64,000 nucleotides of DNA from Escherichia phage UE-S1. Below the pieces are notes generated by a model. The model was not told the DNA's origin and made no database searches. It saw only the letters and a list, made by a program, of their open reading frames with translations. The DNA lies in the sequence record ON568341.1; one strand, given 5' to 3'. This document shows positions 7,727-50,480 of this stretch, one piece after another (position 1 is the first letter of the stretch; each line of letters opens with the position of its first letter). The translations under genes were made by a program, and so were the position numbers.

Positions 7727-7980
7727 CAGTAATGGTGATTATTGGTTTTTTAGTAATATTGTTATTCATTTTTATTTTATCAATGGTTGTCATTGATGAA
7801 CCTAATAGTTCTGTTAGAAATTATGAAGTTCGTTTTTCGGCACAAAACAATAAGTACTATATTGTAAACTGTGTGCATCGTAGTGAGAAAAAGGTAACTG
7901 GTAGGTTTGGATTTACAATTTATTATAAAGATCGAGTAGAAGCTGATATGATTTGTCAGAAACTTAATACAGTAGAATAA
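7723..7980 (+). CDS. small membrane protein
   Basis: Hydrophobic N-terminus IIGFLVILLFIFILSMVVI; bidirectional terminator follows. Confidence 0.45.
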   Translation: MTVMVIIGFLVILLFIFILSMVVIDEPNSSVRNYEVRFSAQNNKYYIVNCVHRSEKKVTGRFGFTIYYKDRVEADMICQKLNTVE

Positions 7981-8007
7981 AAAAAGGAGCCACATGGCTC
8001 CTTTTTT
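7981..8007. terminator. bidirectional intrinsic terminator
   Basis: A5-GGAGCC-ACAT-GGCTCC-T6. Confidence 0.7.
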
Positions 8008-8281
8008 ATGTTTTTACGTAATATGTATAGACAATTATGTAGTTTGATTTTGCGAATCATATACATAGTACAAAAACCTTCAACACTTGCTTCTTCATCT
8101 TTCAATTTAATGAAGAACGTATCATCTCTTAGATTATTAAAATATATAGTTTACAGAAAATAACTTCTCACTATTAATTTTAGCACCTGTAATTTCGATA
8201 CCATCAATAGAAAAAGGTTAATGCAATTATACTTCACGAAGGAAAGTGCATGAAAATTATCATGCACTATATTATTAAAAT

Positions 8282-10183
8282 TTACGCACTGATTGTTACA
8301 GTTGCAGTATCTGTTTTATTACCATCAGCAGTAGCCACTGTAATGACTACAGAACCTTCTTCTAGAGCAGTTACTAATCCCTCATCACTAATAGATACTT
8401 TAGTAGGTTCATCTGCACTATAAGTTACTGATTTGTTAGTTGCGTTAGATGGAAGAACTTCTGGAACTAGTTGAACTGTTTTAGTACCTGATAGTGAAAG
8501 TTCAGTAGTTTTAGGTGTTAAACTAACACTGGATACAGGAACTGGAATATTAACAGTAATAACACCTTGACCTGTTTTACCACTTCCATCAGCAGCAGTT
8601 GCGATAATGTTTGCAGTACCATTAGTTAGTGCAGTTACAATACCAGTACTAGCATCAACTTTTGCTACAGCAGGTTCACTAGAAGACCATGTTACAGATT
8701 TATTAGTTGCGTTAGATGGAAGAACTTCAGCAGCCATTGCTTGAGTTGCTTTAACAGCAGTCAATGTTTTAGTTGCTGGAGTAACATTAATAGATGCTAC
8801 AGGAACTGGAATATTAACAGTTACCACGCAAACTTTAGTAAATCCACCATCAGATGTGGTTGCTGTAATATTTGCAGTACCGTTTGCAACAGCAGTGATT
8901 AACCCAGTTGGACTTACCGTTGCGACACCCTCAGCAGAAGTAGTGTATGAAATATCTTTACGACGAGCGTTATCTGGAATAACAGATGCAGTTAATTGTT
9001 GAGTAGCACCTACCGAAGTTAGGGTTGCGGTCAACGGAGTCATATTAATACCAGTTACTGGGATCGTTACATCAATCACTGATTCAGCAGTTTTAGCACC
9101 ATCATCAGTGGTAACAGTAATAGTTGTAGTACCGTTATCAACCGAAGTTACTAGACCAGTATTACTAACTTTTGCTACGTCTGGATATGAAGAAACATAT
9201 GAAACTGCTTTATTGGATGCAGTTGCAGGAGCAACGGTTGTTTCTAATTGTTTAGTATCACCTAATGTTGAGAATGTATAAGTACTAGGAGTCATAGTGA
9301 CACCAGATACCGGTGTTTTCACAGTGATAGTAGTAGTATCAGTTTTAGCACCATCTTCGGTTGTTGCTGTAATCACCACTGTACCGTTAGCAACACCAGT
9401 TACTAGACCAGAAGTAGGGTTAACGGTTGCTACATCAGGTGTTGCTGAAGACCATGTAACGTTTTTATTAGTTGCATCATCAGGAGATACTGTAGCCGTT
9501 AATTGTTGAGTACCGCCAACGTTAATTGTTGCAGTTTTAGGAGAAACAATAACACCACTAACTGGAGTTGTTACGGTAAATGCACAAACATCGGTGAAAC
9601 CACCATCATGAGTAGTAACTGTTACATTTGCATTACCATTAGCACGGGCAATTGCTAAACCAGTTTCAGCATCAACTTCAACTATTGTTGGAGCAGAGGA
9701 ACTATAACTTACTGTTTTATCATTTGCATAATCTGGATCAATTGTAGCTGATAGCTGTTGTGTACTACCAACTTTAAGTGCTACAACTTTAGGTGAAATA
9801 ATAACACCATCAACTGGAGTAGTATAATCACGTTTAACCACACGACCATTGTTCAATTTAATAATACGACCCATATAAAGAGTAGTATATCCCTTACTAA
9901 TCCCATCATCTACATAAATCATGAATGAATTGTCTTGAACCATATTAATTGCGTCTACTGGTTTAACGGAATTTGGAATGTCGATACCACGGGTATCATA
10001 CCAACACATGGAAACTTTGTAATAGATATCACCATTATCATTTATGAGATCATAAACGTTACTGGAACGTTGACGGTTAATATATAAAGTTTCGGTTAAC
10101 ACCTTACCATCGATTTTAGCGACAGAAACTTTAATACCACCAATACCAAATGGCAATTTACCTTCACTAGATATTGCTTTCAT
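8282..10183 (-). CDS. Ig-like (Big_2-type) repeat protein, possible virion decoration protein
   Basis: Only convincing - strand gene; ~150-aa N-terminal domain then about six ~80-aa repeats (VTVTTHDGGFTDVCAFTVT, ITATTEDGAKTDTTTITV, ITVTTDDGAKTAESVIDV); AAGGAAAG RBS. Confidence 0.75.
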   Translation of the reverse strand: MKAISSEGKLPFGIGGIKVSVAKIDGKVLTETLYINRQRSSNVYDLINDNGDIYYKVSMCWYDTRGIDIPNSVKPVDAINMVQDNSFMIYVDDGISKGYTTLYMGRIIKLNNGRVVKRDYTTPVDGVIISPKVVALKVGSTQQLSATIDPDYANDKTVSYSSSAPTIVEVDAETGLAIARANGNANVTVTTHDGGFTDVCAFTVTTPVSGVIVSPKTATINVGGTQQLTATVSPDDATNKNVTWSSATPDVATVNPTSGLVTGVANGTVVITATTEDGAKTDTTTITVKTPVSGVTMTPSTYTFSTLGDTKQLETTVAPATASNKAVSYVSSYPDVAKVSNTGLVTSVDNGTTTITVTTDDGAKTAESVIDVTIPVTGINMTPLTATLTSVGATQQLTASVIPDNARRKDISYTTSAEGVATVSPTGLITAVANGTANITATTSDGGFTKVCVVTVNIPVPVASINVTPATKTLTAVKATQAMAAEVLPSNATNKSVTWSSSEPAVAKVDASTGIVTALTNGTANIIATAADGSGKTGQGVITVNIPVPVSSVSLTPKTTELSLSGTKTVQLVPEVLPSNATNKSVTYSADEPTKVSISDEGLVTALEEGSVVITVATADGNKTDTATVTISA

Positions 10184-12295: not shown

Positions 12296-12304
12296 GGATT
12301 GCGT

Positions 12305-13057
12305 ATGATATCAGAAAAATTTATAAGTAATGAAGGAAACAAGAGATTACTTATCATCTCAGGAGCAGGTCTTTCCGTTGAAAGTGGGATGGAGCCATTT
12401 CGATTTGATGATGGCTTATGGGATACATTTAAAATTAATGACGTATGTAATATTGCAAATTTAGATACAAAATATCATGTTGTTCATTCGTTTTATAACA
12501 CACTGCGTGTTAAACTGGGTCAATGTGAACCAAATGCAATGCATTATTTTATCAAATCCTTAGAGGATCAATATGGTGATTGTTTCCTTCATATGACCTC
12601 CAACATGGATGATCTTTATACACGTATTGGTGGTAAAGAACTCAAACTTCATGGTAATTTGTGTGAAGTGATAGAAAATTATAGTATTAATGGTGATGAT
12701 TATAACATTGTTAACTGTGGTTATGAGCCATATATACCAAAACATGATGTTTTTGCTAAACCAAATGTAGTGATGATTGGTGAATATCACCGTTACGTTG
12801 ATGGTGTTCGTTTGCCAATATACGAAGAAAGAAATAATGTTTTAAAAACACTTACCGAAAACGATACTGTGATTGTTATTGGAAGTAGCGATACAGTGCT
12901 TGTGTGGTCCAGATTAGCTGCGGCATTGCCCTGTTATAGCGTTAATGTTAACATTCGCAAAAATGATAATGATTTTCTGTTCAATGAAAAAATTATCAAA
13001 CCAGCTACCAAAGCAATACATCAATTAGAGACTATAATTAAGGAACGTATGAAATGA
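12305..13057 (+). CDS. Sir2-family (sirtuin-like) NAD-dependent protein
   Basis: GAGLSVESGMEPFR (NAD-binding GAGIS..GIPDFR motif), TSNMDDL (TQNID-like), LHGNL (catalytic His), VIVIGSSDT; no Zn-binding Cys pairs; start at first ATG (track ORF begins at TTG 12299). Confidence 0.7.
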   Translation: MISEKFISNEGNKRLLIISGAGLSVESGMEPFRFDDGLWDTFKINDVCNIANLDTKYHVVHSFYNTLRVKLGQCEPNAMHYFIKSLEDQYGDCFLHMTSNMDDLYTRIGGKELKLHGNLCEVIENYSINGDDYNIVNCGYEPYIPKHDVFAKPNVVMIGEYHRYVDGVRLPIYEERNNVLKTLTENDTVIVIGSSDTVLVWSRLAAALPCYSVNVNIRKNDNDFLFNEKIIKPATKAIHQLETIIKERMK

Positions 13058-13605
13058 GTGTTAAAGAAGTTCCTTTTGGTGAATATGGTTCACGTGCCAA
13101 TTTTGTATTTTGCTATTTCTTTGCAAGAAAATGTAACCCTTACGAAAATTACGAATTGAATGATATACCAGAAGTAAATTTAGTATTACTCCAATTACGA
13201 TGGGATGGCCTTCTAGGGGGATGTGGTGGGACAGTTGAAAGTACTGATATCTCACTAGAAGATGCGTTACGTCGTGAAATTCAAGAAGAGATGGATTACA
13301 ATATTTTTGTTTCCCATCTTCGACCACTTAAAACTTTTGAAATTTATCCAGGTGCAAACAGTCATAGTTTTAGCTATGAAGTAACCTATGATGAGTTGAA
13401 ACACATTAGAGATGGATACACTAATGCTAAACATGCGAGTGCTGAAGTGGCTGGTGTAAATTTATGTCATATTTCTCGTTATTCTAAGGGACAAAATCGA
13501 GAAGCGGGATATAATAATCTTATGACTCAGAACTTCATTGGTACAGCAAAACAAGAATTGGAGTATCTGGTTCAAAAAGAAAACTTACTAATTAGTTATC
13601 TATAG
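13054..13605 (+). CDS. Nudix-like hydrolase (non-canonical box)
   Basis: GGCGGTVESTDISLEDALRREIQEEMD approximates the Nudix box with a 3-residue insertion; start overlaps Sir2 stop (ATGA). Confidence 0.45.
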   Translation: MSVKEVPFGEYGSRANFVFCYFFARKCNPYENYELNDIPEVNLVLLQLRWDGLLGGCGGTVESTDISLEDALRREIQEEMDYNIFVSHLRPLKTFEIYPGANSHSFSYEVTYDELKHIRDGYTNAKHASAEVAGVNLCHISRYSKGQNREAGYNNLMTQNFIGTAKQELEYLVQKENLLISYL

Positions 13606-13614
13606 GAGTTTAAC

Positions 13615-13935
13615 ATGTCTTACTCAATGTTTTTGGATGATATCCGTGATGCAAATCTATATTATCCAAACCAAGATATGGTGGTATGTCGTGACTTTAA
13701 AAGTGCATGTGAATATGTTATTGAAAATGGAATTCCAGCATTTGTATCATTTGACCATGACTTGGGTGATGTGAGCGAAGACGAAAAGACTGGATATTCT
13801 TTTGCTAAGTTTCTTATTGATTATATGTTTGATAATAATATTAAAGAACCGTTTGAGTACTTTGTTCACAGTAGTAATCCTGTTGGTAAAATTAATATTG
13901 AAACATACTTAAACAATGGGTTTAACGCATTATGA
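13615..13935 (+). CDS. small REC/CheY-like-fold protein (hypothetical)
   Basis: Motifs FLDDIRD, SFDHDLGD, HSSNPVG. Confidence 0.4.
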   Translation: MSYSMFLDDIRDANLYYPNQDMVVCRDFKSACEYVIENGIPAFVSFDHDLGDVSEDEKTGYSFAKFLIDYMFDNNIKEPFEYFVHSSNPVGKINIETYLNNGFNAL

Positions 13936-14234
13936 TTCAAACACACATCAAAAGTCTTATTTGTACTATTCTGTTGGGCACGGGAGTGTTTTTGTTCGGA
14001 CAATATCACGAGAATACTAAGCGTACCAACATTCACTACAATACCGCAGAAGTTGTTAGTTTAGGGCAATGTAGTGAGTCAAAATGTTCGTTTATGTACA
14101 AAACCAGCAATGGTGAAGTACGTAATGGACTATCAAGAGAACCAGTTTCAATTGGTCAACTTGTTTACCAGGAGTGCTGGGAAGAAAAGGTTCGAGGTTC
14201 CCGTTGCTATGTTGAATACGAACCAAATATGTAA
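13932..14234 (+). CDS. hypothetical protein, N-terminal TM helix
   Basis: ORF in array, ATGA overlap with upstream stop. Confidence 0.45.
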   Translation: MIQTHIKSLICTILLGTGVFLFGQYHENTKRTNIHYNTAEVVSLGQCSESKCSFMYKTSNGEVRNGLSREPVSIGQLVYQECWEEKVRGSRCYVEYEPNM

Positions 14235-14294
14235 TAATCCGAGTCAATAACATTAGTCGAGTACAAGGATGTACTCATAACTCAAGGATGTTTT

Positions 14295-15734
14295 ATGAAA
14301 AAATATACAATTGACACAAACGTACTTCTATCTGACCCTAATGCATCTATTGCGTTTGATGGTGCTGCAATCATTCTACCATTTACTGTTCTAGAAGAAT
14401 TGGATTCAATTAAGAGTCGTAGTGTGGATGTTTCACGAGATGCTCGCGTTGCTATTCGTAACATTGAAGCAATTATTGCAAATGCATCTCATGATGAAAT
14501 TAGTAGTTCTGGTGTTAATATTGCTGATGTTCATACCAATATGAATCCTGACAGCAAATTGTTTGTTATTACAAACGAAGAAGCTGAAGCACTAATTCGT
14601 ACTAAAGGTTCAAACGACAAAGTTCAAACCCTTCTCAAAAGCACTGTACCTGATGATAAAATTATTCTGGTAGCTTTAGCAACCGAATCAGTACTGGTAA
14701 CTCGTGATATCAACATGCGTATCAAAGCACTAAGTTATGGTGTCGAGGTACAAGACTATCGTCATGATATTGTTATTGGTGATAGTGATTTGATTCACAT
14801 TGGTCAACATCATATGGAAATTAATTTTTGGGATGTATATAGCAATTTAACAAATACAAATATTAAAACTGAACAAATCGGTCGTCGATTGTATCATTAC
14901 ATCCCTAAAAGCTTGATTGAGCATTTGCTTCCACAAAATCTATGTATTGGTGATTATCTATATGATGATGCTGATGTATTATTTGTATACGAAGGTCAAT
15001 CAGCCATTGAGGAAGATGATGGTACACTAACACCAGAAGATATTTTGGTATTCCAAGATATTGGTCAATCAGTAGCGTTGCGTACTAAAGTATGGGATAT
15101 TAAAGCAAAGAATATTCAGCAAGCACTTGCCATCAACAGTATTCTCGATCCTGATGTACATCTAACAGTACTACTAGGTTCGGCTGGAACTGGCAAAACA
15201 TTAGTGACGATTGCTACTGCACTAGAGTTAGTACTGGAAAAACGCAAATATGACCGTGTTGTGTTCTCAAAACCACAAGATTCACAATGGGCTGAAATTG
15301 GTTTCTTACCAGGTTCCGAAATGGAAAAAATGCTACCACATTGTGGCCCTGCACTGGATGCATTAGAATTTTTACACAAAGATGATGCCTCACCACAAGG
15401 TAGTATCGAAGAGATTCTTAAACGTAACGTGATGCAATTTAAAGCACTAAACTTTGTGCGTGGACGCTCATTCACTAATACGATTCTTGTAGTTGATGAA
15501 TTCCAAAACATTACACCTGCACAAGCAAAAACTATCTTGACACGAGCAGGATTAAACTGTAAAGTAGTGATTATGGGAAACTTAGCACAGATTGATAGCA
15601 AATTTATCAGTCCAGTAAACAGTGGTTTGACATATGTAACTGAAAAATTCAAAGATTGGAGTGGTTGCCGTATCATTGAATTAGAAGGTGTTGTTCGTTC
15701 ACCACTTGCTGAATTTGCTGAAGAAAATATGTAA
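14295..15734 (+). CDS. phoH: PIN-domain PhoH-like ATPase
   Basis: N-terminal PIN motif (IDTNVLL..PFTVLEELD); Walker A GSAGTGKT in C-terminal PhoH domain. Confidence 0.8.
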   Translation: MKKYTIDTNVLLSDPNASIAFDGAAIILPFTVLEELDSIKSRSVDVSRDARVAIRNIEAIIANASHDEISSSGVNIADVHTNMNPDSKLFVITNEEAEALIRTKGSNDKVQTLLKSTVPDDKIILVALATESVLVTRDINMRIKALSYGVEVQDYRHDIVIGDSDLIHIGQHHMEINFWDVYSNLTNTNIKTEQIGRRLYHYIPKSLIEHLLPQNLCIGDYLYDDADVLFVYEGQSAIEEDDGTLTPEDILVFQDIGQSVALRTKVWDIKAKNIQQALAINSILDPDVHLTVLLGSAGTGKTLVTIATALELVLEKRKYDRVVFSKPQDSQWAEIGFLPGSEMEKMLPHCGPALDALEFLHKDDASPQGSIEEILKRNVMQFKALNFVRGRSFTNTILVVDEFQNITPAQAKTILTRAGLNCKVVIMGNLAQIDSKFISPVNSGLTYVTEKFKDWSGCRIIELEGVVRSPLAEFAEENM

Positions 15735-16217: not shown

Positions 16218-16775
16218 ATGTTTTTTGACCAAACATTTACGTTGTATCACGATTCTGGTAAAGTTGAGATTATTGATAATCTGCTACTGTACATTTCTGA
16301 GCATGAAGGGATAGACCGTTTTCATAGTAAGATGAAATTCGATTTAGCTGAATTCAACAAAAAGAATCGTGAAACTTTTTGGAAGAACCGATTCTATTAT
16401 GAAATGTTCCCAGAAAGGTTTGTTGGTTATTATCTTTGTACTGAGAAAGGTTTATTAGTATCTCCAGATTTACTTATGGGTGAATACATGGTTCTCTATA
16501 ATGAGTACTGGAAAAATAAACGCAACGCTCGTGACATTGAATGGAGACACAAGCGTTCTTATATGTACAAACACAACCACTCCCGATACAAACGTCCTAA
16601 AACTCAACAAGAGCGTCGTATGGCGTGTGCGGTACTGAAGGATGAGGGAGAACCTGATATACGTGGAAGACGTAAGATGCGTTCACTACCATCGTATTGG
16701 GACGATACCAGAACAAGACACAGTACTGGCTGGAAATACAGTACTAAGCGTAAAAAACAATACAAAGGGAGCTAA
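16218..16775 (+). CDS. hypothetical protein with basic C-terminus
   Basis: AAGGAG RBS; terminator hairpin overlaps the stop codon. Confidence 0.5.
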   Translation: MFFDQTFTLYHDSGKVEIIDNLLLYISEHEGIDRFHSKMKFDLAEFNKKNRETFWKNRFYYEMFPERFVGYYLCTEKGLLVSPDLLMGEYMVLYNEYWKNKRNARDIEWRHKRSYMYKHNHSRYKRPKTQQERRMACAVLKDEGEPDIRGRRKMRSLPSYWDDTRTRHSTGWKYSTKRKKQYKGS

Positions 16776-16802: not shown

Positions 16803-17972
16803 ATGAGCAAAATTAATGTTGATGTAGTTATTGGTTATATTGAAATTGAACCGTGTAGTATTGATACAATGATTGACACTCTTAATAAGTATCGTTTAGA
16901 GTACAGGGGACATATTAGTATTTCGCCCGACGGTGGTTACGGTGGATTCCATGGATACAATGTAATTTGGACCAGAGAAGAAACTGACGAAGAATATAAT
17001 ACACGAATTGAAGCTGAATCTAAAAGACGTGAAGAAATTGATCGTCAAGAAATGAAACACTTAATGAACAAGAAAATCATTAAGTTCCGAAGAGAAAGAA
17101 AAACTTCTAACATACATCAAGGATTACATGTAATGAAAAATGTAACTCAAGAAAAGATTCTGTACCTTGCAAAGTACAATGGTGGTTTCAATATCATTAG
17201 CCGTGAGTATCGTGGTAATTTGGCTAAGTTGATTGACAGCTTGTTAGAATTCGATTTCATTAAATGGGAAACTAATGAACTTTGGTATGAATATGCTGGT
17301 CAGAAATGGGAAAGTGATTATGATAATGCAACACATACCTATACTATCACCAAAGCAGGTGAAGTTCGTCTATTGATTTATCGTCTAGCATATGCTTATA
17401 AGAATCATAAAGATACTGATAAGCACCAACGTAGGATTGATGAATTACAGCAAGCACTTCAACAATATGATTTAGATATTAATAATTTCAAAGATTGTTG
17501 TTCTAAGAATGAACTTAAAGCAATTAATGATTTCAATAGTAAGACCACAAATGTTGAATTAACTGATTCTGTTGACTTAGAACTTTCACCATACAATACC
17601 AATCCTACTTGGGGAAGAACTCTTACTAATATCAATGATATTGATTTCAGCCAACCAGCACTGAATAATATGTTCCAAATGAGTTCAATGCTGGGTGCTA
17701 AAGGTTTTGATGCGTCAAGAACTGATGATTATGTTCTTCGTAAAATAAATGAAGAACTTGGTGAAATGACACTTGAAATGAACATCCGTGATGGGTTATC
17801 ATATAAAGAAGCAGGTAAAGATGGTGTCAAAGGTGAAGCTGTAGATCTTTGCATTTGTGCACTTGACATGTTCGCTTTGCAATGCGATAATATGAGTCCA
17901 GAAGAGATGGAACGTGAGTTCCTTACTTACATGAATGTTAAACTAGCCAAATGGCGTAAATCAATTCAATAG
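16803..17972 (+). CDS. hypothetical protein with C-terminal MazG-like domain
   Basis: C-terminal INEELGEMTLEM ... GEAVDLCICALDMFAL resembles MazG EExGE / ExxD motifs. Confidence 0.45.
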   Translation: MSKINVDVVIGYIEIEPCSIDTMIDTLNKYRLEYRGHISISPDGGYGGFHGYNVIWTREETDEEYNTRIEAESKRREEIDRQEMKHLMNKKIIKFRRERKTSNIHQGLHVMKNVTQEKILYLAKYNGGFNIISREYRGNLAKLIDSLLEFDFIKWETNELWYEYAGQKWESDYDNATHTYTITKAGEVRLLIYRLAYAYKNHKDTDKHQRRIDELQQALQQYDLDINNFKDCCSKNELKAINDFNSKTTNVELTDSVDLELSPYNTNPTWGRTLTNINDIDFSQPALNNMFQMSSMLGAKGFDASRTDDYVLRKINEELGEMTLEMNIRDGLSYKEAGKDGVKGEAVDLCICALDMFALQCDNMSPEEMEREFLTYMNVKLAKWRKSIQ

Positions 17973-17980
17973 GTTTTTTA

Positions 17981-18952
17981 ATGAAAACTAAAATTATTTC
18001 TGAACAAAAAATCGGCAATACTACAGTACTGAATATTGAAGTTCAAGATCTTAGTAATGTTCGTTCTCTTACTGTTTGTACTCAGAGAGATGATTTGACT
18101 GATTTTTATAACTCCGAATACATGTCAGAAGAACATTGGGATATGGGATGGTTAGACGGTAGTAGTTATATCAGTTCTCGTTATAGTTTTGGTTCTCATG
18201 AAAATATTGAACAAGTAAAAAATGAGTATATTAAACTCAGTGATACTATTGAAATGAAAGAAGAAGATTGTGTAGAACTTTTCATTTTTGAATTCGATGC
18301 AGGAAATGGTAATTCATTACTAGTAAGTAATATTGAAGAACATTTAATGTATCATGATATTGAAGATGTAGATTTTAAAAGTATTAAAAATGTTGTTCAT
18401 ATGGTTGGTGGTAGTATTACTGATGATTCAGATATCGGTCATAATATTTCACTGTGCTTAATTTCTCATCCAAAAACTCGTGGTTTTAAAGTTCCACAAG
18501 ATGAAACTTACGTGTTTGAAACTGCTGATGAAGGAATTTATCCTTGGAATGATTATGTAGAATACTATGGTCATTTCTGTTCTGATATAAAAGAACTGAA
18601 AAAAGGCGAACGATATTTTGATATGTTCCGTGCAGCACAGCGTTTAGTACTGAATAATACTGAACTATTTCCTGATCGCGGTGAAGAAAATATGATTGAT
18701 ATTATCTTCAAGAACTATGATTATGTGCAGAACATTCCTGATAATGTACATTTGGAATATGTTCACGGTTCTTCAAACAAATTCTATAATATTGAATTGA
18801 ATGTTTCAGTGTGTGAAGTAATCATTGAGTACGGTGCTATTGGTAAAACCAGTACTACCGATGGTGAAGAATTCGAAACTATTGAAGAAGCACGTAAGTT
18901 CTTCGAGAAGAAAGTAATTTCCAAAATTAAAAGTGGTTATATCCCAAAATGA
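17981..18952 (+). CDS. hypothetical protein with C-terminal WGR-like domain
   Basis: C-terminus KFYNIEL..EYGAIGKTSTTDGEEFETIEEARKFFEKKVISKIKSGY resembles WGR domain. Confidence 0.45.
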   Translation: MKTKIISEQKIGNTTVLNIEVQDLSNVRSLTVCTQRDDLTDFYNSEYMSEEHWDMGWLDGSSYISSRYSFGSHENIEQVKNEYIKLSDTIEMKEEDCVELFIFEFDAGNGNSLLVSNIEEHLMYHDIEDVDFKSIKNVVHMVGGSITDDSDIGHNISLCLISHPKTRGFKVPQDETYVFETADEGIYPWNDYVEYYGHFCSDIKELKKGERYFDMFRAAQRLVLNNTELFPDRGEENMIDIIFKNYDYVQNIPDNVHLEYVHGSSNKFYNIELNVSVCEVIIEYGAIGKTSTTDGEEFETIEEARKFFEKKVISKIKSGYIPK

Positions 18953-33314: not shown

Positions 33315-33716
33315 ATGACTACAGTTGATGATATCTATAGTACTATACGAAATATGAGTACAGATAGAAAAGTATTTGGTGATAAAGAAAAATCTAAGTG
33401 TTATGGTATTGATTCTTTTGATATAATTTCGTATGAGTACAACACGAATGGAAATAGTTCACTGAATATCGTCTGCCCTCGTGACCCAGAAAATAATTTT
33501 ATGTATGTTGAAATTAATAATGATGGGATGTTTTTTACAAAAGTTTTCAAAGGTGGTATTAATTACGAACCTATTGAATGTATGAATGAAGAAACTTTCT
33601 TTCAAGAAGATACAATTATCAATTTAGGTTTTAGTTTTGCGGATTATAAAACATTAGAACATGACTTTAATCGTTATTATAACGGTTTCTTAAAGGAGTT
33701 AACAATTTATCTATGA
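33315..33716 (+). CDS. hypothetical protein
   Basis: ORF in array. Confidence 0.45.
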   Translation: MTTVDDIYSTIRNMSTDRKVFGDKEKSKCYGIDSFDIISYEYNTNGNSSLNIVCPRDPENNFMYVEINNDGMFFTKVFKGGINYEPIECMNEETFFQEDTIINLGFSFADYKTLEHDFNRYYNGFLKELTIYL

Positions 33717-34945
33717 ATAACCAATATGTTGAACAAACAATAGTGAAACACTTGGCTGGGTCACAAGCCTACGGAACCAGTACGCCTGAAAGTGATACTG
33801 ATTATCGTGGTATTTTTCTTGCTAATAAAGAATTTATTCTTACGCCATTCTATAAGGTTAAAGAAGTAGCTGATAAAAATGAAGAAGATACCAAATTCTA
33901 TGAGTTAAATCAGTATTTAAAATTATACACTGAAGCCAACCCTAATATTCTGGAATCACTATGGGTTGAACCAGAACACATTGTAGAAAGTACTGAGATT
34001 TATGACTATCTTCGTTCATTTAACCAAAAACTTCTTAGTTCTAAGATTGCATTTTCATATACTGGATATGCATATAATCAGATTAAGCGTATGACAAATC
34101 ATCACGGTTGGATGGATAAAGAGCGAATTGCTGAAAAACGTTTAAATGAGATTTTAGAAGAACACCCTGTCGATGAGGTTCTTGCGTGGATGTATGATTC
34201 ATTCCCACAATATCTTGTTGAACGTTTAGATACATCTAACTTACATCCATTTAATACTAAAAAGATTGATTTTGAAAAATATATGCGTGATACGTCATTG
34301 CAGTTAGTTTCGAAAAATCCATTAAAGCAATATCATTTTGTAAGATTAGTGCATAACTACACTACTGACAAAATTCTAGATCGTGATTTCAATTTATTGA
34401 ATTTTAATAATGGCTATGAACTAATTCATTACGGAGAAAACATTTTTGCGATTATTAAAAATCCAAATGAAAGCACTATCAACGGTGATGGATCATTGCG
34501 TTATTTTTCTAAAGAGCGTAGTACTGAAGAATTGAAAACTAAACCAGAACTAATTGTCAAATTTAACGAAAAAGAATATCAGGAAAATAGTGAGAATAGA
34601 AAAAGTTATCATAAATGGAAAGAAAATCGTAATGCCAAACGTGCTATTTTAGAATCACAACACGGATACGATTGTAAACATGCTATGCACACAATCCGAC
34701 TTTTGAATAGTGCAGAAGAAGCATTACAAAGTGGAATTATTCAAGTTAAACGACCAGATGCACAAATGTTGATGGATATTCGTAATGGTAAATGGAAGTA
34801 TGAAGAAGTCTTAGAATATTTCGATGATAAAGTACAATACATTCGTGATGTTCTATATAAGAAATCAGTACTTCCCAAAAAACCTAACATCAAGTTAGCA
34901 TCGAAAATTATAATTGATATTCGAGAAATGCAATGGTATAAGTAA
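33713..34945 (+). CDS. pol-beta-superfamily nucleotidyltransferase
   Basis: N-terminal GSQAYGTSTPESDTDYRG matches the NTase-fold signature G[SG]..(9-13)..D.D; 410 aa with uncharacterised C-terminal region. Confidence 0.55.
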   Translation: MNNQYVEQTIVKHLAGSQAYGTSTPESDTDYRGIFLANKEFILTPFYKVKEVADKNEEDTKFYELNQYLKLYTEANPNILESLWVEPEHIVESTEIYDYLRSFNQKLLSSKIAFSYTGYAYNQIKRMTNHHGWMDKERIAEKRLNEILEEHPVDEVLAWMYDSFPQYLVERLDTSNLHPFNTKKIDFEKYMRDTSLQLVSKNPLKQYHFVRLVHNYTTDKILDRDFNLLNFNNGYELIHYGENIFAIIKNPNESTINGDGSLRYFSKERSTEELKTKPELIVKFNEKEYQENSENRKSYHKWKENRNAKRAILESQHGYDCKHAMHTIRLLNSAEEALQSGIIQVKRPDAQMLMDIRNGKWKYEEVLEYFDDKVQYIRDVLYKKSVLPKKPNIKLASKIIIDIREMQWYK

Positions 34946-41695: not shown

Positions 41696-42272
41696 ATTAG
41701 TATATTACTATGGTAGTATGTCCAGTGGTAAAAGCACTCATCTTTTACAAAACGCATATAACCATAAGAAAAATGGAATGAAGGTAATTTACTTAACCAG
41801 TGCACTTGATGATCGTTATGGAACCGGAAAGATCACTTCAAGAATTGGTATTGAAGCTGATGCTGAAGTAATTCCAAAAAATGACATTAGTGTTCTTCTT
41901 AAAGTTAAAGAAACACTCAATAATGATGTTGACATTAACAGCATTTATGTTGATGAATGTCAATTTTTAAACAGAGAGCAGATTGACCATTTGGCTGATA
42001 TTGCCGATAATTATGGTGTTGATGTTTCCTGTTATGGTATTCGAACAGATTTTGAATCTAATCTATTTGAAGGTTCCCACCGACTTTTTGAAATAGCTGA
42101 TGATATACATGAACTTAAGAATGTGTGTGAGAATCAGAAGTGTGGGAAAGAAGCTACCATGAATGCACGTATTGTAGACAGTACTGAAAAAGTTTTCATT
42201 GGTGGTAACGAATCCTATAAAAGTTTGTGTAGAAAATGTTATAAAGAATATATGAGGAATAAAAATGGTTGA
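41688..42272 (+). CDS. tk: thymidine kinase
   Basis: P-loop YYGSMSSGKST; C-terminal Cys pairs (CENQKCG .. CRKCY). Confidence 0.85.
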   Translation: MGKLVYYYGSMSSGKSTHLLQNAYNHKKNGMKVIYLTSALDDRYGTGKITSRIGIEADAEVIPKNDISVLLKVKETLNNDVDINSIYVDECQFLNREQIDHLADIADNYGVDVSCYGIRTDFESNLFEGSHRLFEIADDIHELKNVCENQKCGKEATMNARIVDSTEKVFIGGNESYKSLCRKCYKEYMRNKNG

Positions 42273-42486
42273 TTCATTCATGAAACGAGTTTTAACAGAT
42301 GTTCTATCTGGATTTAAAAAAGCAACTAATATTATTTTCAGTTCAATTGTGATGGTTATTACTGTATTGACATTTTCTCTAGTGTTACATTTTGTGCCAT
42401 TCTGGTTAATCTTTATTGTATTAATTGGTCTTCTATGTGCACATGTTTATCATGTTTACAGTGAAATGTTGGATAATGACGATTAA
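42265..42486 (+). CDS. small membrane protein
   Basis: Two hydrophobic helices; terminator follows. Confidence 0.45.
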   Translation: MVDSFMKRVLTDVLSGFKKATNIIFSSIVMVITVLTFSLVLHFVPFWLIFIVLIGLLCAHVYHVYSEMLDNDD

Positions 42487-42494
42487 ATATATTT

Positions 42495-42518
42495 GACCCC
42501 ACTATGTGGGGTCTTTTT
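42495..42518 (+). terminator. intrinsic terminator
   Basis: GACCCCA / TGGGGTC stem then T5. Confidence 0.7.
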
Positions 42519-42531
42519 GAAGGTAAATTTT

Positions 42532-42975
42532 ATGTACATTGAAGTTGAAACATTCAAACGATTTATTGACATTTGTCGTCATACTAATCTTATATATTTG
42601 GGTCCAGGAGCAAACTTCAGAACTTTATCTTCAATTTTAGGATATACTGAACCATCATGCTTATATTGCGATGGGAACATGATTCATCTCACTGATGGTG
42701 ATTACAATGTTCAGTACATTTCTCAATGTGATTTGTATGTATTAAATACTCCAGAATATAATATTATTATTGAAGAACGTACTAAAGATAATTACCCAAC
42801 CCAATATGTAAGTTGGGATAGAACAGATTGCGTATATGCCACTGGTCCAGTACAGAAACCTATGAACTATCCTACTATTCATTTGAATGTTATCCATGAT
42901 GAATTGAAAGATTACTGTAACAGTATTTCAGATTCGGAAACAAAATACTTTCCTATTATATTTTATAAGGTTTAA
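42532..42975 (+). CDS. hypothetical protein
   Basis: Track ORF 42493-42975 trimmed to ATG 42532 because the terminator hairpin occupies 42495-42518. Confidence 0.45.
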   Translation: MYIEVETFKRFIDICRHTNLIYLGPGANFRTLSSILGYTEPSCLYCDGNMIHLTDGDYNVQYISQCDLYVLNTPEYNIIIEERTKDNYPTQYVSWDRTDCVYATGPVQKPMNYPTIHLNVIHDELKDYCNSISDSETKYFPIIFYKV

Positions 42976-42977
42976 TT

Positions 42978-43367
42978 ATGAGATGGCGTAAACGACATAC
43001 TAAAAGATTTAATACTATAATTAAGAAATATTATTCCCATAAGTTGGATTCAATGATTCTTCAATTAAGAAGTAGTATTTTTGACAGGCGTTATCCACAG
43101 TGTTTAGAATCGTACAGTAGGAGGCGTTCAAAGAATGAGTATCAAATATATCGTTATGATCTATCTGAATTATTTTTGAATACCCGTGTTTCTGTACCAA
43201 TTAGACTGTATTCAAGGTCTAAACGAAGTAGAATTCAAGATATTACATATGGATATCTCATGCTTGATATTGACGAATTGAATGAAAAAATGGATAGAAA
43301 CTTCAGTGCTTTATGTCTGGAAAACAATAATACCATTAAACATATCATAAAAAATTTGGATAAGTAG
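42978..43367 (+). CDS. hypothetical basic protein
   Basis: ORF in array. Confidence 0.45.
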   Translation: MRWRKRHTKRFNTIIKKYYSHKLDSMILQLRSSIFDRRYPQCLESYSRRRSKNEYQIYRYDLSELFLNTRVSVPIRLYSRSKRSRIQDITYGYLMLDIDELNEKMDRNFSALCLENNNTIKHIIKNLDK

Positions 43368-43384
43368 AAGTTTTAGTGATATAA

Positions 43385-43741
43385 TTGGAGATGAGTATGA
43401 AATATATAGATAAAGGTACAGTGGAGACACAGTACTGGAATATTCATATTGCGGGTGATATTAACACCGCAAGAGAGTACACAAGAAAGTTTGCGTTTAA
43501 AAATGGGTTTTGTGTACAATTGATTCCATGTGAATATATCTATACTGGTGGTCTTGAAAGTGGAATCTGTGCTCGTATTATTCAGTACCCACGCTTTCCT
43601 AAAGAAGAAGTGTACCTAAATCGAGATGTACTAAATTACGCTAAGGGATTAGCTGAAGAGTTGTGTCAGAAGAGTTTCACTATTGAGAGAAATAATGATA
43701 CAATTTATTATGAAAGTGATGACCCTTTACACAAGAAATAA
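43385..43741 (+). CDS. hypothetical protein
   Basis: GGAG RBS. Confidence 0.5.
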   Translation: MEMSMKYIDKGTVETQYWNIHIAGDINTAREYTRKFAFKNGFCVQLIPCEYIYTGGLESGICARIIQYPRFPKEEVYLNRDVLNYAKGLAEELCQKSFTIERNNDTIYYESDDPLHKK

Positions 43742-43752
43742 AAGGAAACTAT

Positions 43753-43884
43753 ATGAATGGACTAAAAAAGTTTGGTAAAGATTTTCTACAGTGCATCAAA
43801 TATACATATGATGCAAATCCAGAAATGACTGCGATTGTAGGTGTATTTATTGCATTAGTTGTATTAAGTTTCATTATGGGGTAA
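43753..43884 (+). CDS. small membrane protein (43 aa)
   Basis: Not on track; AAAGGAAA RBS; C-terminal TM segment TAIVGVFIALVVLSFIMG. Confidence 0.35.
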   Translation: MNGLKKFGKDFLQCIKYTYDANPEMTAIVGVFIALVVLSFIMG

Positions 43885-43887
43885 CAT

Positions 43888-44091
43888 ATGATTGAAATTA
43901 ATGCTGATATCTACTGTAGTGCTTTTCCAAATTACTTCATTTATGCATTAAGTACATTTGGTGAAACAGAAGGTGAGACGTTTGTTTTAGTAGATAATAC
44001 TACTTGGTATAAAACAAGTAATAAAATTTCTGAAGATGTTTTTGAAACATATGTTCGTATTGAAAATAAAAACATATATGTAAATTTATAG
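43888..44091 (+). CDS. small hypothetical protein
   Basis: ORF in array. Confidence 0.4.
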   Translation: MIEINADIYCSAFPNYFIYALSTFGETEGETFVLVDNTTWYKTSNKISEDVFETYVRIENKNIYVNL

Positions 44092-44098
44092 GTAAAAT

Positions 44099-44509
44099 AT
44101 GATTGAAATGGAAGGCATTCTGGTGTATGATCCAGATCGTGGAGCTATGAAAAAGAAGAAGGATTTCTGGTTAGTCCTACAACTTCCATTACAGTTGGTT
44201 AGATACTACCAGTACTTCATTCGAACTGACTTACATATTGACATTAAAGACCCACAATGGGGTGCACACGTCAGTATTGTTCGTGGGGAAGTGCCACCAA
44301 ATCCAGAGTACTGGAAGAAGTACCATGGTAAAAAAATCAAAATAAAATTTAATCCTGATATCATACAAGTGAAAGACAAAAAGAATCCAGGTTCGTTCTT
44401 TATTATAGAGTTTGATGATGAATTTATTGGTCATATTCGAAATGAATTAGGATTACAATCGAAGTTCTTACGTTATCACATTACAGTTGGTAGAACGTAC
44501 TACGATTAG
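44099..44509 (+). CDS. 2H-phosphoesterase-like protein
   Basis: Two H-x-[ST]-x motifs ~70 residues apart (HVSIV and HITVG), the arrangement typical of 2H phosphoesterases. Confidence 0.45.
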   Translation: MIEMEGILVYDPDRGAMKKKKDFWLVLQLPLQLVRYYQYFIRTDLHIDIKDPQWGAHVSIVRGEVPPNPEYWKKYHGKKIKIKFNPDIIQVKDKKNPGSFFIIEFDDEFIGHIRNELGLQSKFLRYHITVGRTYYD

Positions 44510-44527
44510 TTTAGTGGTAAATATATC

Positions 44528-44555
44528 TTGACTGAAAATAAAAATATGCTATAAT
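44528..44555 (+). promoter_or_regulatory. sigma70-like promoter with extended -10
   Basis: TTGACT - 16 nt - TATAAT preceded by TGC; upstream of lysozyme gene. Confidence 0.5.
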
Positions 44556-44673
44556 ACTTAAACACTTGAAAATAACGTTTTAGTACTGTAGAAAGTCCGA
44601 TGAGGCTTTTGCAAAATGGCCTCTTTGCCATCTTTGTGATTGCCCCGTCTTAACAATCAACAAAGGAGGCGTT

Positions 44674-45600
44674 TTGAAACAAGCGAAAAAAGCACTGAAA
44701 ACTAAAATTGCCGTAGGCGTATTAGTTTCATCAGCCCTATTCGCTGCTATTGGATTTTATGGTTTTTCACGACATGATCATGTACCATCATTAGACGAAA
44801 GTCAGGTGCATAATTTAAAACCACAGTTTACTCAAATTCAAAAGCAGGAACTTCCAGTGGTGTCAATACCGAAAGAAGTTTCAAGCAGCGAGAAACATTA
44901 TACGGTTCAACCAGGTGATAGTTATTATTCTATTGCTAAAAAGTTTAAGCCTAAAAATGTACAACTTGAAGAGTATGTTATTTTGTTGAAAAATATCAAT
45001 TTAAATGCTACACTTCATACTTCTCAGGGTATCTTTATCCCAACAAAAGAGGATTTGAAAAACATATTATTACCAGATGTGACTGTACTGTTTGATTATA
45101 CTGATCCTGAAATTGTCAATCACATCAAAGAAGCTGAAGGTTCAATTGAATTTCAGTCTAAAAATAAACGCCGTTTACTTGGTGGGCAAGTTGGTGTATC
45201 ATATCGTAATTCTAAATTTTATCCATATCGTGATGTAAAAGGTAACTACACAATTGGGTACGGACATTACCTTGGAAGGAATGCTTCAGATGCAAGTAAA
45301 TATCGCAATGGAATTACTAAATCGCAAGCACATGAACTTTTATTGTCTGATATGGAACGAATTAATAATGATTTAATTTTATTATTGAAGAAAAGAAATG
45401 CAACAAACCTTACGGTTGAACAACAAAGAATTTTATTTGAGATGGCATTTACTTTAGGTGTTGATAAATTAAACACTTTCAACAAACTATGGAAAAGTGT
45501 TGAAAATCAAAATTACAACAAGTTCAAAAAAGAAATTAAGAATTCTCTATGGTATCGACAAGTTGGAAACCGTGCAGAATTGTTGTTAAGTTCACTCTAA
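44674..45600 (+). CDS. membrane-anchored LysM-lysozyme (T4-lysozyme-fold; endolysin candidate)
   Basis: N-terminal TM/signal-anchor (IAVGVLVSSALFAAIGFYGF); LysM motif YTVQPGDSYYSIAKKF; C-terminal YTIGYGHYL .. GITK .. SLWYRQVGNRAELL resembles T4 lysozyme; TTG start after AAAGGAGG. Confidence 0.75.
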   Translation: MKQAKKALKTKIAVGVLVSSALFAAIGFYGFSRHDHVPSLDESQVHNLKPQFTQIQKQELPVVSIPKEVSSSEKHYTVQPGDSYYSIAKKFKPKNVQLEEYVILLKNINLNATLHTSQGIFIPTKEDLKNILLPDVTVLFDYTDPEIVNHIKEAEGSIEFQSKNKRRLLGGQVGVSYRNSKFYPYRDVKGNYTIGYGHYLGRNASDASKYRNGITKSQAHELLLSDMERINNDLILLLKKRNATNLTVEQQRILFEMAFTLGVDKLNTFNKLWKSVENQNYNKFKKEIKNSLWYRQVGNRAELLLSSL

Positions 45601-45617: not shown

Positions 45618-45950
45618 ATGCTAAATCTAAATATTCAAGGCAACGTTGATATCACTCCAGCAATCCAAGATGCTATTTATAATGAAGCAAAAAGTCTGGA
45701 TAAGTACCGTACTTCTTCAGTACTAGACATTGGTGTTCATGTTAAGAAAGAGCATAAAACTCAATATGCTGTAACTTTAACTGCTGGTAGTAAATCAGTA
45801 ACTGCTGATGATGCTGATTTGTATAAAGCAATTGTTGAATCTTTTGATAAGATGGAAACTGTATTCAGTAAAGACAAAAGCATTAAATTACACCGCCGAA
45901 ACCATCCAGAACACCCCGTTCTTGATGATTTGACAGAAAACGAAGAGTAA
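45618..45950 (+). CDS. hypothetical protein
   Basis: AAGGAAGG RBS; terminator follows. Confidence 0.5.
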   Translation: MLNLNIQGNVDITPAIQDAIYNEAKSLDKYRTSSVLDIGVHVKKEHKTQYAVTLTAGSKSVTADDADLYKAIVESFDKMETVFSKDKSIKLHRRNHPEHPVLDDLTENEE

Positions 45951-46412: not shown

Positions 46413-46598
46413 ATGGAATATACCATATGTGTAATTGTATGTATCGTAGCCTTACTTGCAGGAGTTGGTGTGATGATTTACTGTGATGCGGAACCCAGTA
46501 CAGAAACAGGAACAACTATTGAACTTAAGCCTGGTGTTAAGGTAAATGATTCATATTGTTACGATCCACATAGTAATAAGTATGTGATTTGTCTATGA
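46413..46598 (+). CDS. small membrane protein
   Basis: N-terminal TM helix ICVIVCIVALLAGVGVMIY. Confidence 0.4.
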   Translation: MEYTICVIVCIVALLAGVGVMIYCDAEPSTETGTTIELKPGVKVNDSYCYDPHSNKYVICL

Positions 46599-47005
46599 AA
46601 AAGTTTGATATTAAACCTATGATCGATGCTATCGAAATTAAATTAAAAAATACTAAAAAGACAGATAGTACATGTTTGTTCTTTAGCTTAGATAAAATGT
46701 ATTATGAAACACACGTGTCAAGTTATGATAGAACAGGAAATCTCTTCATCCGTACTTATAACATATTTTATAGTGACGATGTTTTTATGATAGATATAAA
46801 TCTGGATGAAAGTATAGTGTTGATGTATATTGAGGATGTTCAATCAACAGAACAACGAAACGGGACTCTTCCTATTGCTGCTACAGAGGAAGAGTTTATG
46901 CAATATCAGTTCATTGATGATACCTTTGGCATTGACTTTGACACATATCAGAGTATAATGAGGGTATACGAACTTTATGAGGATTATGTGATTGGACGTT
47001 ACTAA
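46589..47005 (+). CDS. hypothetical protein, paralogue 1 of 2
   Basis: C-terminal QYQFIDDTFGIDFDTYQSIMRVYELY paralogous to next ORF. Confidence 0.5.
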   Translation: MSMKKFDIKPMIDAIEIKLKNTKKTDSTCLFFSLDKMYYETHVSSYDRTGNLFIRTYNIFYSDDVFMIDINLDESIVLMYIEDVQSTEQRNGTLPIAATEEEFMQYQFIDDTFGIDFDTYQSIMRVYELYEDYVIGRY

Positions 47006-47414
47006 AATTTCAAAATTTAATGAAACTTTAAAGTACTTTGCTGAACACGAAATCAGTACTGAAAGACGCGGTTTAATTTCATACAATCCACATCGTGTTC
47101 TGTACACTAATAATTTTCAGGGTACAGTTCGTATTAAATTTCGTAATGCACTCGAAGACAATGATGAATTGTTAATTTTACTACGAAAAAGTAAGATTGA
47201 ATTAACATACGTAACTCACGATATTGAAAGTGAGTTGATGTGGCACACGCTGTCAAAAAAAGAAGGTTCATTGCCAGTTGTTGATAATGGCCCTGAAACA
47301 CTTGATCAGTACATGTTCATTGATGATACATTTGGCATTGACTATTCTGCGTATCAATGTATACTAGCTATATACGAAAAATATTACGACCGTCTACGTG
47401 ACAGATTAATTTAA
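46992..47414 (+). CDS. hypothetical protein, paralogue 2 of 2
   Basis: C-terminal DQYMFIDDTFGIDYSAYQCILAIYEKY. Confidence 0.5.
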   Translation: MDVTKISKFNETLKYFAEHEISTERRGLISYNPHRVLYTNNFQGTVRIKFRNALEDNDELLILLRKSKIELTYVTHDIESELMWHTLSKKEGSLPVVDNGPETLDQYMFIDDTFGIDYSAYQCILAIYEKYYDRLRDRLI

Positions 47415-48770: not shown

Positions 48771-49172
48771 GTGATGGTCAGATACTTATCGGACATACAA
48801 CACGGACAGAAACATTGGGATTTACCTAAAGGGAAAGCAGAGGGTGAAGAAACATTCAAAGAAGCTGCTGTGCGTGAATGTTTTGAAGAGACAGGATACG
48901 AAATCGATGAAGATGATCTTCTGTTTCTTGGTGATGTATCCTATAGAAAGGGAAAAAGGTTGGTTCTTTTCTTTTATACTGCTAAAGACAAGCCTGTACC
49001 AGATGAATTAGTATGTAAAAGTACATATACTAATAGATATGGTAAGAGTCATCCAGAATTGGATAAGTTCATGTACATTGATGTGCGAGAATGTCAAAAG
49101 TATTTGACTGAACGAATGTGTAACAGTATAATAAAAGCGGTTAAAGCTTTTCAAAGAAATAAAAGGAAATAA
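48771..49172 (+). CDS. Nudix hydrolase (N-terminal strand encoded in a different frame; possible frameshift)
   Basis: Canonical Nudix box GKAEGEETFKEAAVRECFEETGYEI; a 29-codon ORF at 48740-48829 in another frame encodes MRYSCGIIFYRDGQILIGHTTRT, the expected Nudix N-terminal strand. Confidence 0.55.
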   Translation: MMVRYLSDIQHGQKHWDLPKGKAEGEETFKEAAVRECFEETGYEIDEDDLLFLGDVSYRKGKRLVLFFYTAKDKPVPDELVCKSTYTNRYGKSHPELDKFMYIDVRECQKYLTERMCNSIIKAVKAFQRNKRK

Positions 49173-50003: not shown

Positions 50004-50480
50004 ATGATACATGAGCACCGAGGTAATCTGTTTGAATTGTTCAGTACTGTAACCGATGATGAAACTGCATTGCATATTATTGCACATGGTTGCAACGCCC
50101 AAGGTAAAATGGGTTCTGGTTTTGCAAAAGAACTAAGAAATCGTTACCCAATGGCATATGATGATTATAAAGCATATGAAAAGGAAATGGGATTTCTAAG
50201 AACTGGAAAAATTGCATATTCTTCGGTAAGTGATGATTTACTTATTGCAAACTGTATTACCCAACAATTCTACGGGAATGATGGTAAAAAATATGTAAGT
50301 TATGATGCAATTGATGATATTTTCAAAGAGATAAATTACTTATGTAATATTGAACGTAGTGTTTATGTACACTTTCCGAAAATTGGAGCCGATTTGGGTG
50401 GTGGTAACTGGAACGTTATCAAAGAAATTATTGATCACAGACTGGTCAATGCAGAAAAACACTTATATATTCTAAAATAA
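50004..50480 (+). CDS. macro-domain protein (ADP-ribose binding/processing)
   Basis: HGCNAQGKMGSGFAKEL and HFPKIGADLGGGNW resemble macro-domain Gly-rich loops. Confidence 0.6.
   Translation: MIHEHRGNLFELFSTVTDDETALHIIAHGCNAQGKMGSGFAKELRNRYPMAYDDYKAYEKEMGFLRTGKIAYSSVSDDLLIANCITQQFYGNDGKKYVSYDAIDDIFKEINYLCNIERSVYVHFPKIGADLGGGNWNVIKEIIDHRLVNAEKHLYILK

Follow-up and report, generated by a model that had tools for sequence, protein, structure and literature searches.

A predicted stand-alone 2H phosphoesterase from an Escherichia coli jumbo phage, outside the Acb1 family and with a putative role in RNA repair

The 'Swiss Army Knife' (SAK) RNA-repair proteins, from which the 2H-SAK domain takes its name, were reportedly so named by Burroughs and Aravind in 2016, and in these proteins the 2H-SAK domain is one part of a multidomain polypeptide. 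The closest described systems further include the RNA 2',3'-cyclic phosphodiesterases of the LigT/ThpR family (PF02834, PF13563; PDB 5LDI, 1VGJ, 4QAK, 5H7F), the anti-CBASS nucleases Acb1 of T4 (gp57B) and phage FBB1 (PDB 7T26-7T28), and the viral 2',5'-phosphodiesterases MHV ns2 and the C-terminal domain of rotavirus VP3 (PDB 4Z5V, 4RPT), which belong to eukaryotic RNA viruses and degrade 2-5A, blocking RNase L. A role analogous to the one that we propose below belongs to T4 Pnkp (PseT), which removes 2',3'-cyclic or 3' phosphate ends before ligation; it is metal-dependent, and its fold, a P-loop kinase joined to a HAD phosphatase, is unrelated to 2H. For jumbo phages, 2H domains have been predicted to clear 2',3'-cyclic ends for RNA ligases (Iyer et al., 2021), a prediction that was made likewise in a later study (Iyer et al., 2022, PMC9503650), and Pfam and UniProt already label orthologs of the gene considered here as '2H-SAK'.

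In this study, we analysed a window of 64 kb (64,000 nucleotides, the whole stretch of DNA under consideration) from an Asteriusvirus-like jumbo myovirus of E. coli, which is 90% identical at the nucleotide level to ph0011 and 85-87% identical to 121Q, PBECO4, and their relatives. One small gene of this window (Table 1), 'hypothetical' in almost every GenBank record, is predicted to encode a 2H phosphoesterase with an intact active site. The modelled protein consists of two internally duplicated beta-beta-alpha-beta lobes in a confident 2H fold, and each lobe presents one H-x-S/T on its central beta-strand (H57/S59 and H127/T129), the two histidines being 70 residues apart. When 110 sequences are aligned (mean column identity 19%), no columns but those of H57 and H127 are invariant; T129, G63, Y10, P12, Y37, W72, R114, and G118 are more than 90% conserved, and both motifs are kept in essentially every full-length representative of 150 clusters. 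An earlier note on this DNA had put the protein forward as a candidate 2H phosphoesterase from a pair of motifs about 70 residues apart; both motifs were confirmed at residues 57-61 and 127-131, the call agrees with the invariant histidines and the modelled fold, and the structure prediction that the note had named as a check returned a 2H fold.

Table 1. Features of the 64-kb window, with positions counted from its first nucleotide
Feature	Coordinates	Strand	Remarks
SIR2, 252 aa	12299-13057	+	cluster 12299..15734, about 30 kb upstream of the 2H gene
Nudt16-like Nudix, 183 aa	13054-13605	+	4-nt overlap with SIR2
cREC cyclic-phosphate-processing receiver domain, 106 aa	13615-13935	+	SIR2 cluster, followed by a 100-aa ORF
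PIN-PhoH fusion, 479 aa	14295-15734	+	end of the SIR2 cluster
RlaP, RNA-ligase-associated Pol-beta nucleotidyltransferase	33713..34939	+	tblastn with BF gp153: 57% identity, 2e-163
Four small ORFs packed directly upstream of the 2H gene	42978..44091	+	gaps of 3-17 nt
2H phosphoesterase gene (predicted), 136 aa, stand-alone, 2H-SAK-like clade, PHROG 12204	44099..44509	+	ATG start
Motif 1, H57-V-S-I-V, then R62-G-E; predicted catalytic His and Ser; strand 57-62	44267..44281	+	residues 57-61
Motif 2, H127-I-T-V-G, then R132; predicted catalytic His and Thr; strand 126-132	44477..44491	+	residues 127-131
Near-consensus sigma-70 promoter-like site: TTGACT, 16-nt spacer, TG-extended TATAAT	44528..44555	+	from the sequence
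CCA-adding tRNA nucleotidyltransferase, 370 aa	47550..48662	+	PolyA_pol head and RNA-binding domains
Nudix hydrolase	48771..49172	+	Pfam
Macro-domain protein, Appr-1''-p / ADP-ribose processing family	50004..50480	+	weak Pfam match, 19.6 bits; annotated in ph0011

The gene is real and under strong purifying selection, with a dN/dS of 0.07 against ph0011 and 0.10 against ECO103, and its annotated start is backed by a conserved I-E at residues 2-3. Orthologs throughout the 121Q/RaK2/GAP32/CBB/BF supergroup share 54-93% identity, the PHROG assigned in Table 1 matches the protein end to end (4.9e-63), and a search of 1.84 billion cluster representatives returned 381 relatives at E up to 1e-3, nearly all of them stand-alone proteins of 125-170 aa. 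When all 3008 six-frame ORFs of a related complete 352-kb genome were screened for hydrophobic-H-x-S/T-hydrophobic pairs lying 45-120 residues apart, this gene and one other short frame were the only ones recovered. The other frame, of 120 codons (OR844650.1, ECO103 4-12-1, 313599-313958, minus strand), carries CHVSV and LHCTV 59 residues apart and might represent another mini-2H protein or match by chance.

Several lines of comparison place the protein near 2H-SAK (PF22547), which is the sole Pfam family matched consistently by the protein and its relatives. The window protein itself scores 22.7 bits (E 1.2e-4) against a threshold of 27 bits, over residues 78-136 only and just the C-terminal half of the model, and this sub-threshold, partial match indicates that it is a divergent, stand-alone branch. 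The ortholog in Serratia phage BF scores 33.7 bits, above the cutoff; PF22547 is matched by 27 of 27 close and 103 of 110 distant relatives (at E below 1 for the 110) and is precomputed for 21 of 26 close homologs, while the best relatives reach about 1e-9 to 1e-10 only. The branch shares with 2H-SAK the H-x-S/T pair, its carriage by phages, and an RNA-repair context, and differs from it in being made of free-standing proteins of about 135-165 aa rather than of domains within SAK proteins. The protein has no match to LigT/ThpR (PF02834), which is weakly matched by 10 of the 110 relatives (best E 1.2e-3); it is about 40 residues shorter than the LigT/ThpR enzymes and, unlike them and the archaeal and bacterial '2'-5' RNA ligase' family, its family is confined to phages. 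No sequence similarity to the viral 2',5'-phosphodiesterases was detected. Neither the single protein nor the 110-sequence profile found a genuine match among PDB chain sequences, so that the protein has no solved relative; NCBIfam likewise returned no match for it, and Rfam nothing meaningful around the gene.

It is with regard to Acb1 that our results depart from the earlier note, which had likened the protein to the T4 enzyme. The likeness in size holds (136 against 152 aa), but membership in the Acb1 family is rejected. Neither the protein, at E up to 10, nor any of its 27 close or 110 distant relatives matches the Pfam Acb1 family (PF23474), to which T4 gp57B aligns at 2.7e-60. BLASTP against T4 Acb1 gives a nonsignificant E of 0.12, and hhalign against a 17-sequence Acb1 profile gives a probability of 24.7% over 37 columns, with lobe 2 of the candidate placed onto lobe 1 of Acb1, a pairing that reflects the generic internal repeat of the 2H fold and makes the profile similarity non-specific. 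The spacing of the motifs is close (70 residues for HxS/HxT here, 69 for HxT/HxT in Acb1), but all 2H enzymes share such a pair. In Acb1, the ligand is captured by Y12, W74, F107, W147, E141, and a C-terminal lid of residues 145-152, where E141 reads the adenine N6 and W147 belongs to the lid. While Acb1 continues for 39 residues after H113, the window protein, like its homologs, ends 9 residues past H127, so that the region of the lid, E141, and W147 is absent; in place of the roughly 37-residue C-terminal segment of Acb1 it has a longer N-terminal hairpin. The gene neighbourhoods of the Acb1 comparators are also unlike those of the 2H gene. Moreover, Yersinia phage fHe-Yen9-04 has both an Acb1 (by its BFVD/UniProt name) and a 57%-identical ortholog of the 2H protein, which indicates that the two are separate genes in a related jumbo phage. 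An Acb1-profile scan of a complete genome from the E. coli lineage, ECO103 4-12-1, gave no match, and that genome has only one 2H-family gene. In structural comparison, the single best neighbour of the model is Acb1. Small phage 2H proteins should not all be taken for Acb1. RefSeq and many T4-like records still label T4 gene 57B 'RNA ligase'.

At the family level, the RNA-repair enzymes found next to the 2H gene in RaK2-like phages are an RNA ligase, DUF2828, a CCA-adding enzyme, RlaP, and Thg1. Of 17 RaK2-like IMG/VR loci, 15 carry the ligase (PF09414 with a PHA02142 OB domain) about 3.7 kb upstream of the 2H gene (-3.4 to -4.0 kb), 16 carry near -2 kb the DUF2828/DUF7788 protein, whose annotation is RNA-binding, and 16 carry the CCA-adding enzyme at +2.5 to +3.8 kb; Nudix, YqeY, Macro, and a Pth-like gene are likewise found downstream, with Thg1 and RlaP farther upstream. 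In Serratia phage BF, the 2H ortholog gp183 is preceded by a ligase of the same domain composition (gp178), by DUF2828/DUF7788 (gp180), and by Thg1 and RlaP, and is followed by the CCA-adding enzyme, Nudix, YqeY, and Macro. The ligase and DUF2828 genes are both missing only in the lineages of 121Q (E. coli) and RaK2 (Klebsiella). In the window, the interval that they occupy in relatives (42265-44091) holds small ORFs instead, and both genes, as well as homologs of YqeY and Thg1, are found neither in the window nor anywhere in the complete ECO103 genome. By this comparison, the 121Q/E. coli lineage has evidently lost the ancestral ligase that adjoined the 2H gene. The RNA-repair neighbours in the window itself are only the CCA-adding enzyme, RlaP (its BF counterpart, gp153, matches Pfam RlaP), Nudix, and Macro. 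A glutaredoxin gene also lies downstream, and past the Macro gene comes one with the annotation aminoacyl-tRNA hydrolase in ph0011. Outside the 2H neighbourhood, the lineage also has T4-type Rnl1 (8e-58) and Pnkp (5e-43) genes side by side. No HD phosphohydrolase domain was detectable in the CCA-adding enzyme of the window; the CCA enzymes near two distant 2H homologs (L007 and L030), of about 690-700 aa, show a weak HD match.

In distant relatives the 2H gene is often embedded in tRNA arrays. At 60 loci with 26-41% identity, a tRNA gene lies within 10 kb of the 2H homolog in 45, within 2 kb in 39, within 500 nt in 28, and within 100 nt in 13, raw counts to be read against an expected rate of roughly 5-10% or less, which is our own estimate from tRNA clustering rather than a whole-contig baseline. 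The number of tRNAs per locus has a median of 6.5 and a maximum of 30. Single-linkage clustering (50% identity) sorts the loci into 15 clusters, and in 7 of these the majority of members carry a tRNA no more than 2 kb away; the huge-phage loci L003, L005, L007, L029, and L030, which are 54-77% identical, were counted as one lineage. Other neighbours at the distant loci are a Ro60/TROVE protein, PARG, a CCA-HD enzyme, a HIT protein, a Band_7 protein, and a directly adjoining cREC gene, and NAD-salvage and Macro genes recur near the homologs. YqeY, a module that resembles GatB and is predicted to bind tRNA, is fused to one 2H homolog and is encoded close by in Atu_ph07 and BF. The T4 Acb1 gene (57B; L002 3953-4411) lies 1.4 kb from the T4 tRNA cluster, so that proximity to tRNA genes alone is no proof of an RNA-repair role. 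Moreover, the 64-kb window has no tRNA gene, and in the ECO103 genome some 170 kb separate the 2H gene from the closest ones; the argument from tRNA proximity is therefore limited to the distant relatives, and we do not apply it to the gene of the window. Two side observations concern the distant family members. On IMGVR_UViG_3300043177_000122 (359 kb), two divergent 2H-family paralogs lie about 35 kb apart. In a 595-kb uncultured phage (LR756511.1), a 2H homolog at 7977-8381 has one in-frame TAG (8226-8228) within a conserved stretch (…EKYNGQ*IDFQV…), with homology resuming beyond it, which suggests that TAG is recoded in this huge phage under an alternative genetic code, or that the homolog has recently become a pseudogene.

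Taken with the active site, this context leads us to favour, at a probability of about 0.55, the reading that the gene product is a catalytically competent, metal-independent 2H phosphoesterase that would open 2',3'-cyclic phosphate ends on damaged tRNA or RNA. By the established chemistry of other 2H enzymes, H57 and H127 would serve as general acid and base on a phosphate at the ribose 2'/3' position. The genomic context points to 2',3'-cyclic ends generated by metal-independent host nucleases (anticodon nucleases, toxins) as the substrate; opening of the cyclic end would be the 'healing' step, after which a phosphatase/kinase, an RNA ligase, RlaP, and the CCA-adding enzyme would restore the tRNA pool. 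Since the ancestral ligase is lost in the E. coli-phage lineage, its partners there would be the distal T4-type Pnkp and Rnl1, or else the CCA-adding enzyme encoded 3 kb downstream, in which no HD domain was detectable. As a secondary substrate, Appr>p is plausible. Some of our findings weigh against RNA repair. The T4-type Pnkp is annotated with cyclic-phosphodiesterase and 3'-phosphatase activity, so that a 2H enzyme would not be strictly needed for the classical pathway. In the lineage of the window, the missing adjacent ligase and DUF2828 and the distance to the tRNA genes count against it as well, as does the combination of Acb1 as the best structural neighbour with a lineage that has no Acb1 of its own.

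This combination bears on another explanation, namely that the protein is an anti-defence nuclease, Acb1-like by function and not by family, which would degrade cyclic-oligonucleotide or 2'-5'-linked immune messengers of CBASS, type III CRISPR (cOA), or related systems and so block abortive infection. Such a function would suit an E. coli lineage that lost the neighbouring ligase and is without Acb1; we regard it as unlikely. It is quite unlikely, in our view, that the stand-alone 2H-SAK-like proteins of jumbo phages as a group form a second compact family of signal-degrading anti-defence nucleases, unrelated to Acb1, that would cut the cyclic oligonucleotides of CBASS or of type III CRISPR, or else the 2',3'-cyclic-phosphate 'damage' signals by which secondary defences are set off, and would fill the role of Acb1 in E. 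coli jumbo phages lacking it. If the enzyme did destroy immune signals, it would found a new anti-defence family, on present evidence a minority reading. Unlikely, too, is an enzyme dedicated to Appr>p, a by-product formed when KptA or a KptA-like phage sirtuin removes a 2'-phosphate in an NAD-dependent reaction; Appr-1''-p would be passed on to Macro and then to Nudix. Within the window, 31 kb separate SIR2 from the 2H gene, a homolog of KptA was not found, prediction already assigns that step to cREC, and the tightest links of the family (tRNA genes within 100 nt, the YqeY fusion, and the RNA ligase) indicate RNA itself. This explanation overlaps with RNA repair, and the two are compatible.

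The links to tRNA could also be taken to mean that the protein matures or trims tRNA 3' ends, as a Usb1-like 3'-to-5' exoribonuclease acting on tRNA-array transcripts or on damaged acceptor ends before CCA addition. The best structural matches of the protein include Usb1, homologs of the 2H gene sit in tRNA arrays, and a CCA-adding enzyme recurs nearby, all of which would fit. However, the protein has no sequence relationship to Usb1, and in the lineage of the window the tRNAs lie 170 kb away; as far as we are aware, Usb1-like trimming is without precedent in phages, and we judge this function very improbable. Finally, the motifs might be fortuitous and the protein not an enzyme, for which one could cite the score of the window protein alone, under the Pfam gathering threshold (22.7 against 27 bits). 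Against this stand the invariance of H57 and H127 among 110 divergent sequences, the confident 2H fold of the model, and the strong purifying selection, and we consider a chance origin of the motifs effectively refuted.

The gene thus belongs to a computationally predicted class. To the predictions already made for this class we add the explicit rejection of an Acb1 assignment; the conserved island of ligase, DUF2828, 2H, CCA, YqeY, and Macro genes, together with its decay in the 121Q and RaK2 lineages; and the counts of how distant homologs are embedded in tRNA arrays. With its placement as a 2H phosphoesterase, a family of 381 cluster representatives (at 50% identity), whose sampled members are on jumbo- and huge-phage contigs, gains a function that can be tested, and the RaK2-like island and the tRNA arrays tie the putative enzyme to the defence of the tRNA pool against host nucleases.

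About 30 kb upstream, the SIR2, Nudix, cREC, and PIN-PhoH genes of Table 1 form a sirtuin-centred neighbourhood of the kind predicted, for this group of phages, to act in NAD-dependent RNA-end clean-up (Iyer et al., 2022, PMC9503650, section 3.7.3). They are followed by two large ORFs without a Pfam match (16218-16775 and 16803-17972) and by a 323-aa protein with a C-terminal WGR domain (17981-18952). The WGR domain is usually tied to PARP and to the sensing of DNA or RNA breaks.

Around the 2H gene itself, the local arrangement is compact. The gene closes a dense run of small ORFs, which are 2-17 nt apart and probably co-transcribed with it, and a 164-nt spacer follows. Two of the four small ORFs have no Pfam match, and the run includes a 118-aa ORF (43385-43741) that is conserved in Serratia phage BF (gp174). 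Just upstream of the run, a perfect 8-bp GC-rich hairpin at 42495-42513 (GACCCCAC-TAT-GTGGGGTC), followed by a T-run on the + strand, is terminator-like in both directions. The strong promoter that had been reported beside the gene does exist as a near-consensus site, but it is found past the 2H stop codon (downstream), on the strand of the gene and pointing away from it, so that it cannot drive the 2H gene; as a mark of an early anti-defence gene it was rejected on this orientation. This promoter serves the LysM-lysozyme gene at 44674. The 164-nt spacer (44510-44673) includes a predicted leader (44562-44673) that folds at -29.7 kcal/mol (z = -2.75 against shuffled controls), has no match in Rfam, and pairs the Shine-Dalgarno AAAGGAGG of the LysM-lysozyme gene (44674-45600) in its basal stem, an arrangement that could regulate a lysis-type gene at the level of translation. 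A ribosome hibernation/modulation factor of the S30AE family (110 aa) is encoded at 45618-45950, two genes past the 2H gene; the 121Q locus and three IMG/VR loci related to it have an S30AE-family gene near the same place, where one is also annotated in Serratia phage BF. Tandem paralogous ORFs of 138 and 140 aa follow at 46589-47005 and 46992-47414, overlapping by 14 nt and sharing the C-terminal motif QY.FIDDTFGID..(Y/T)YQ.I...YE.Y.
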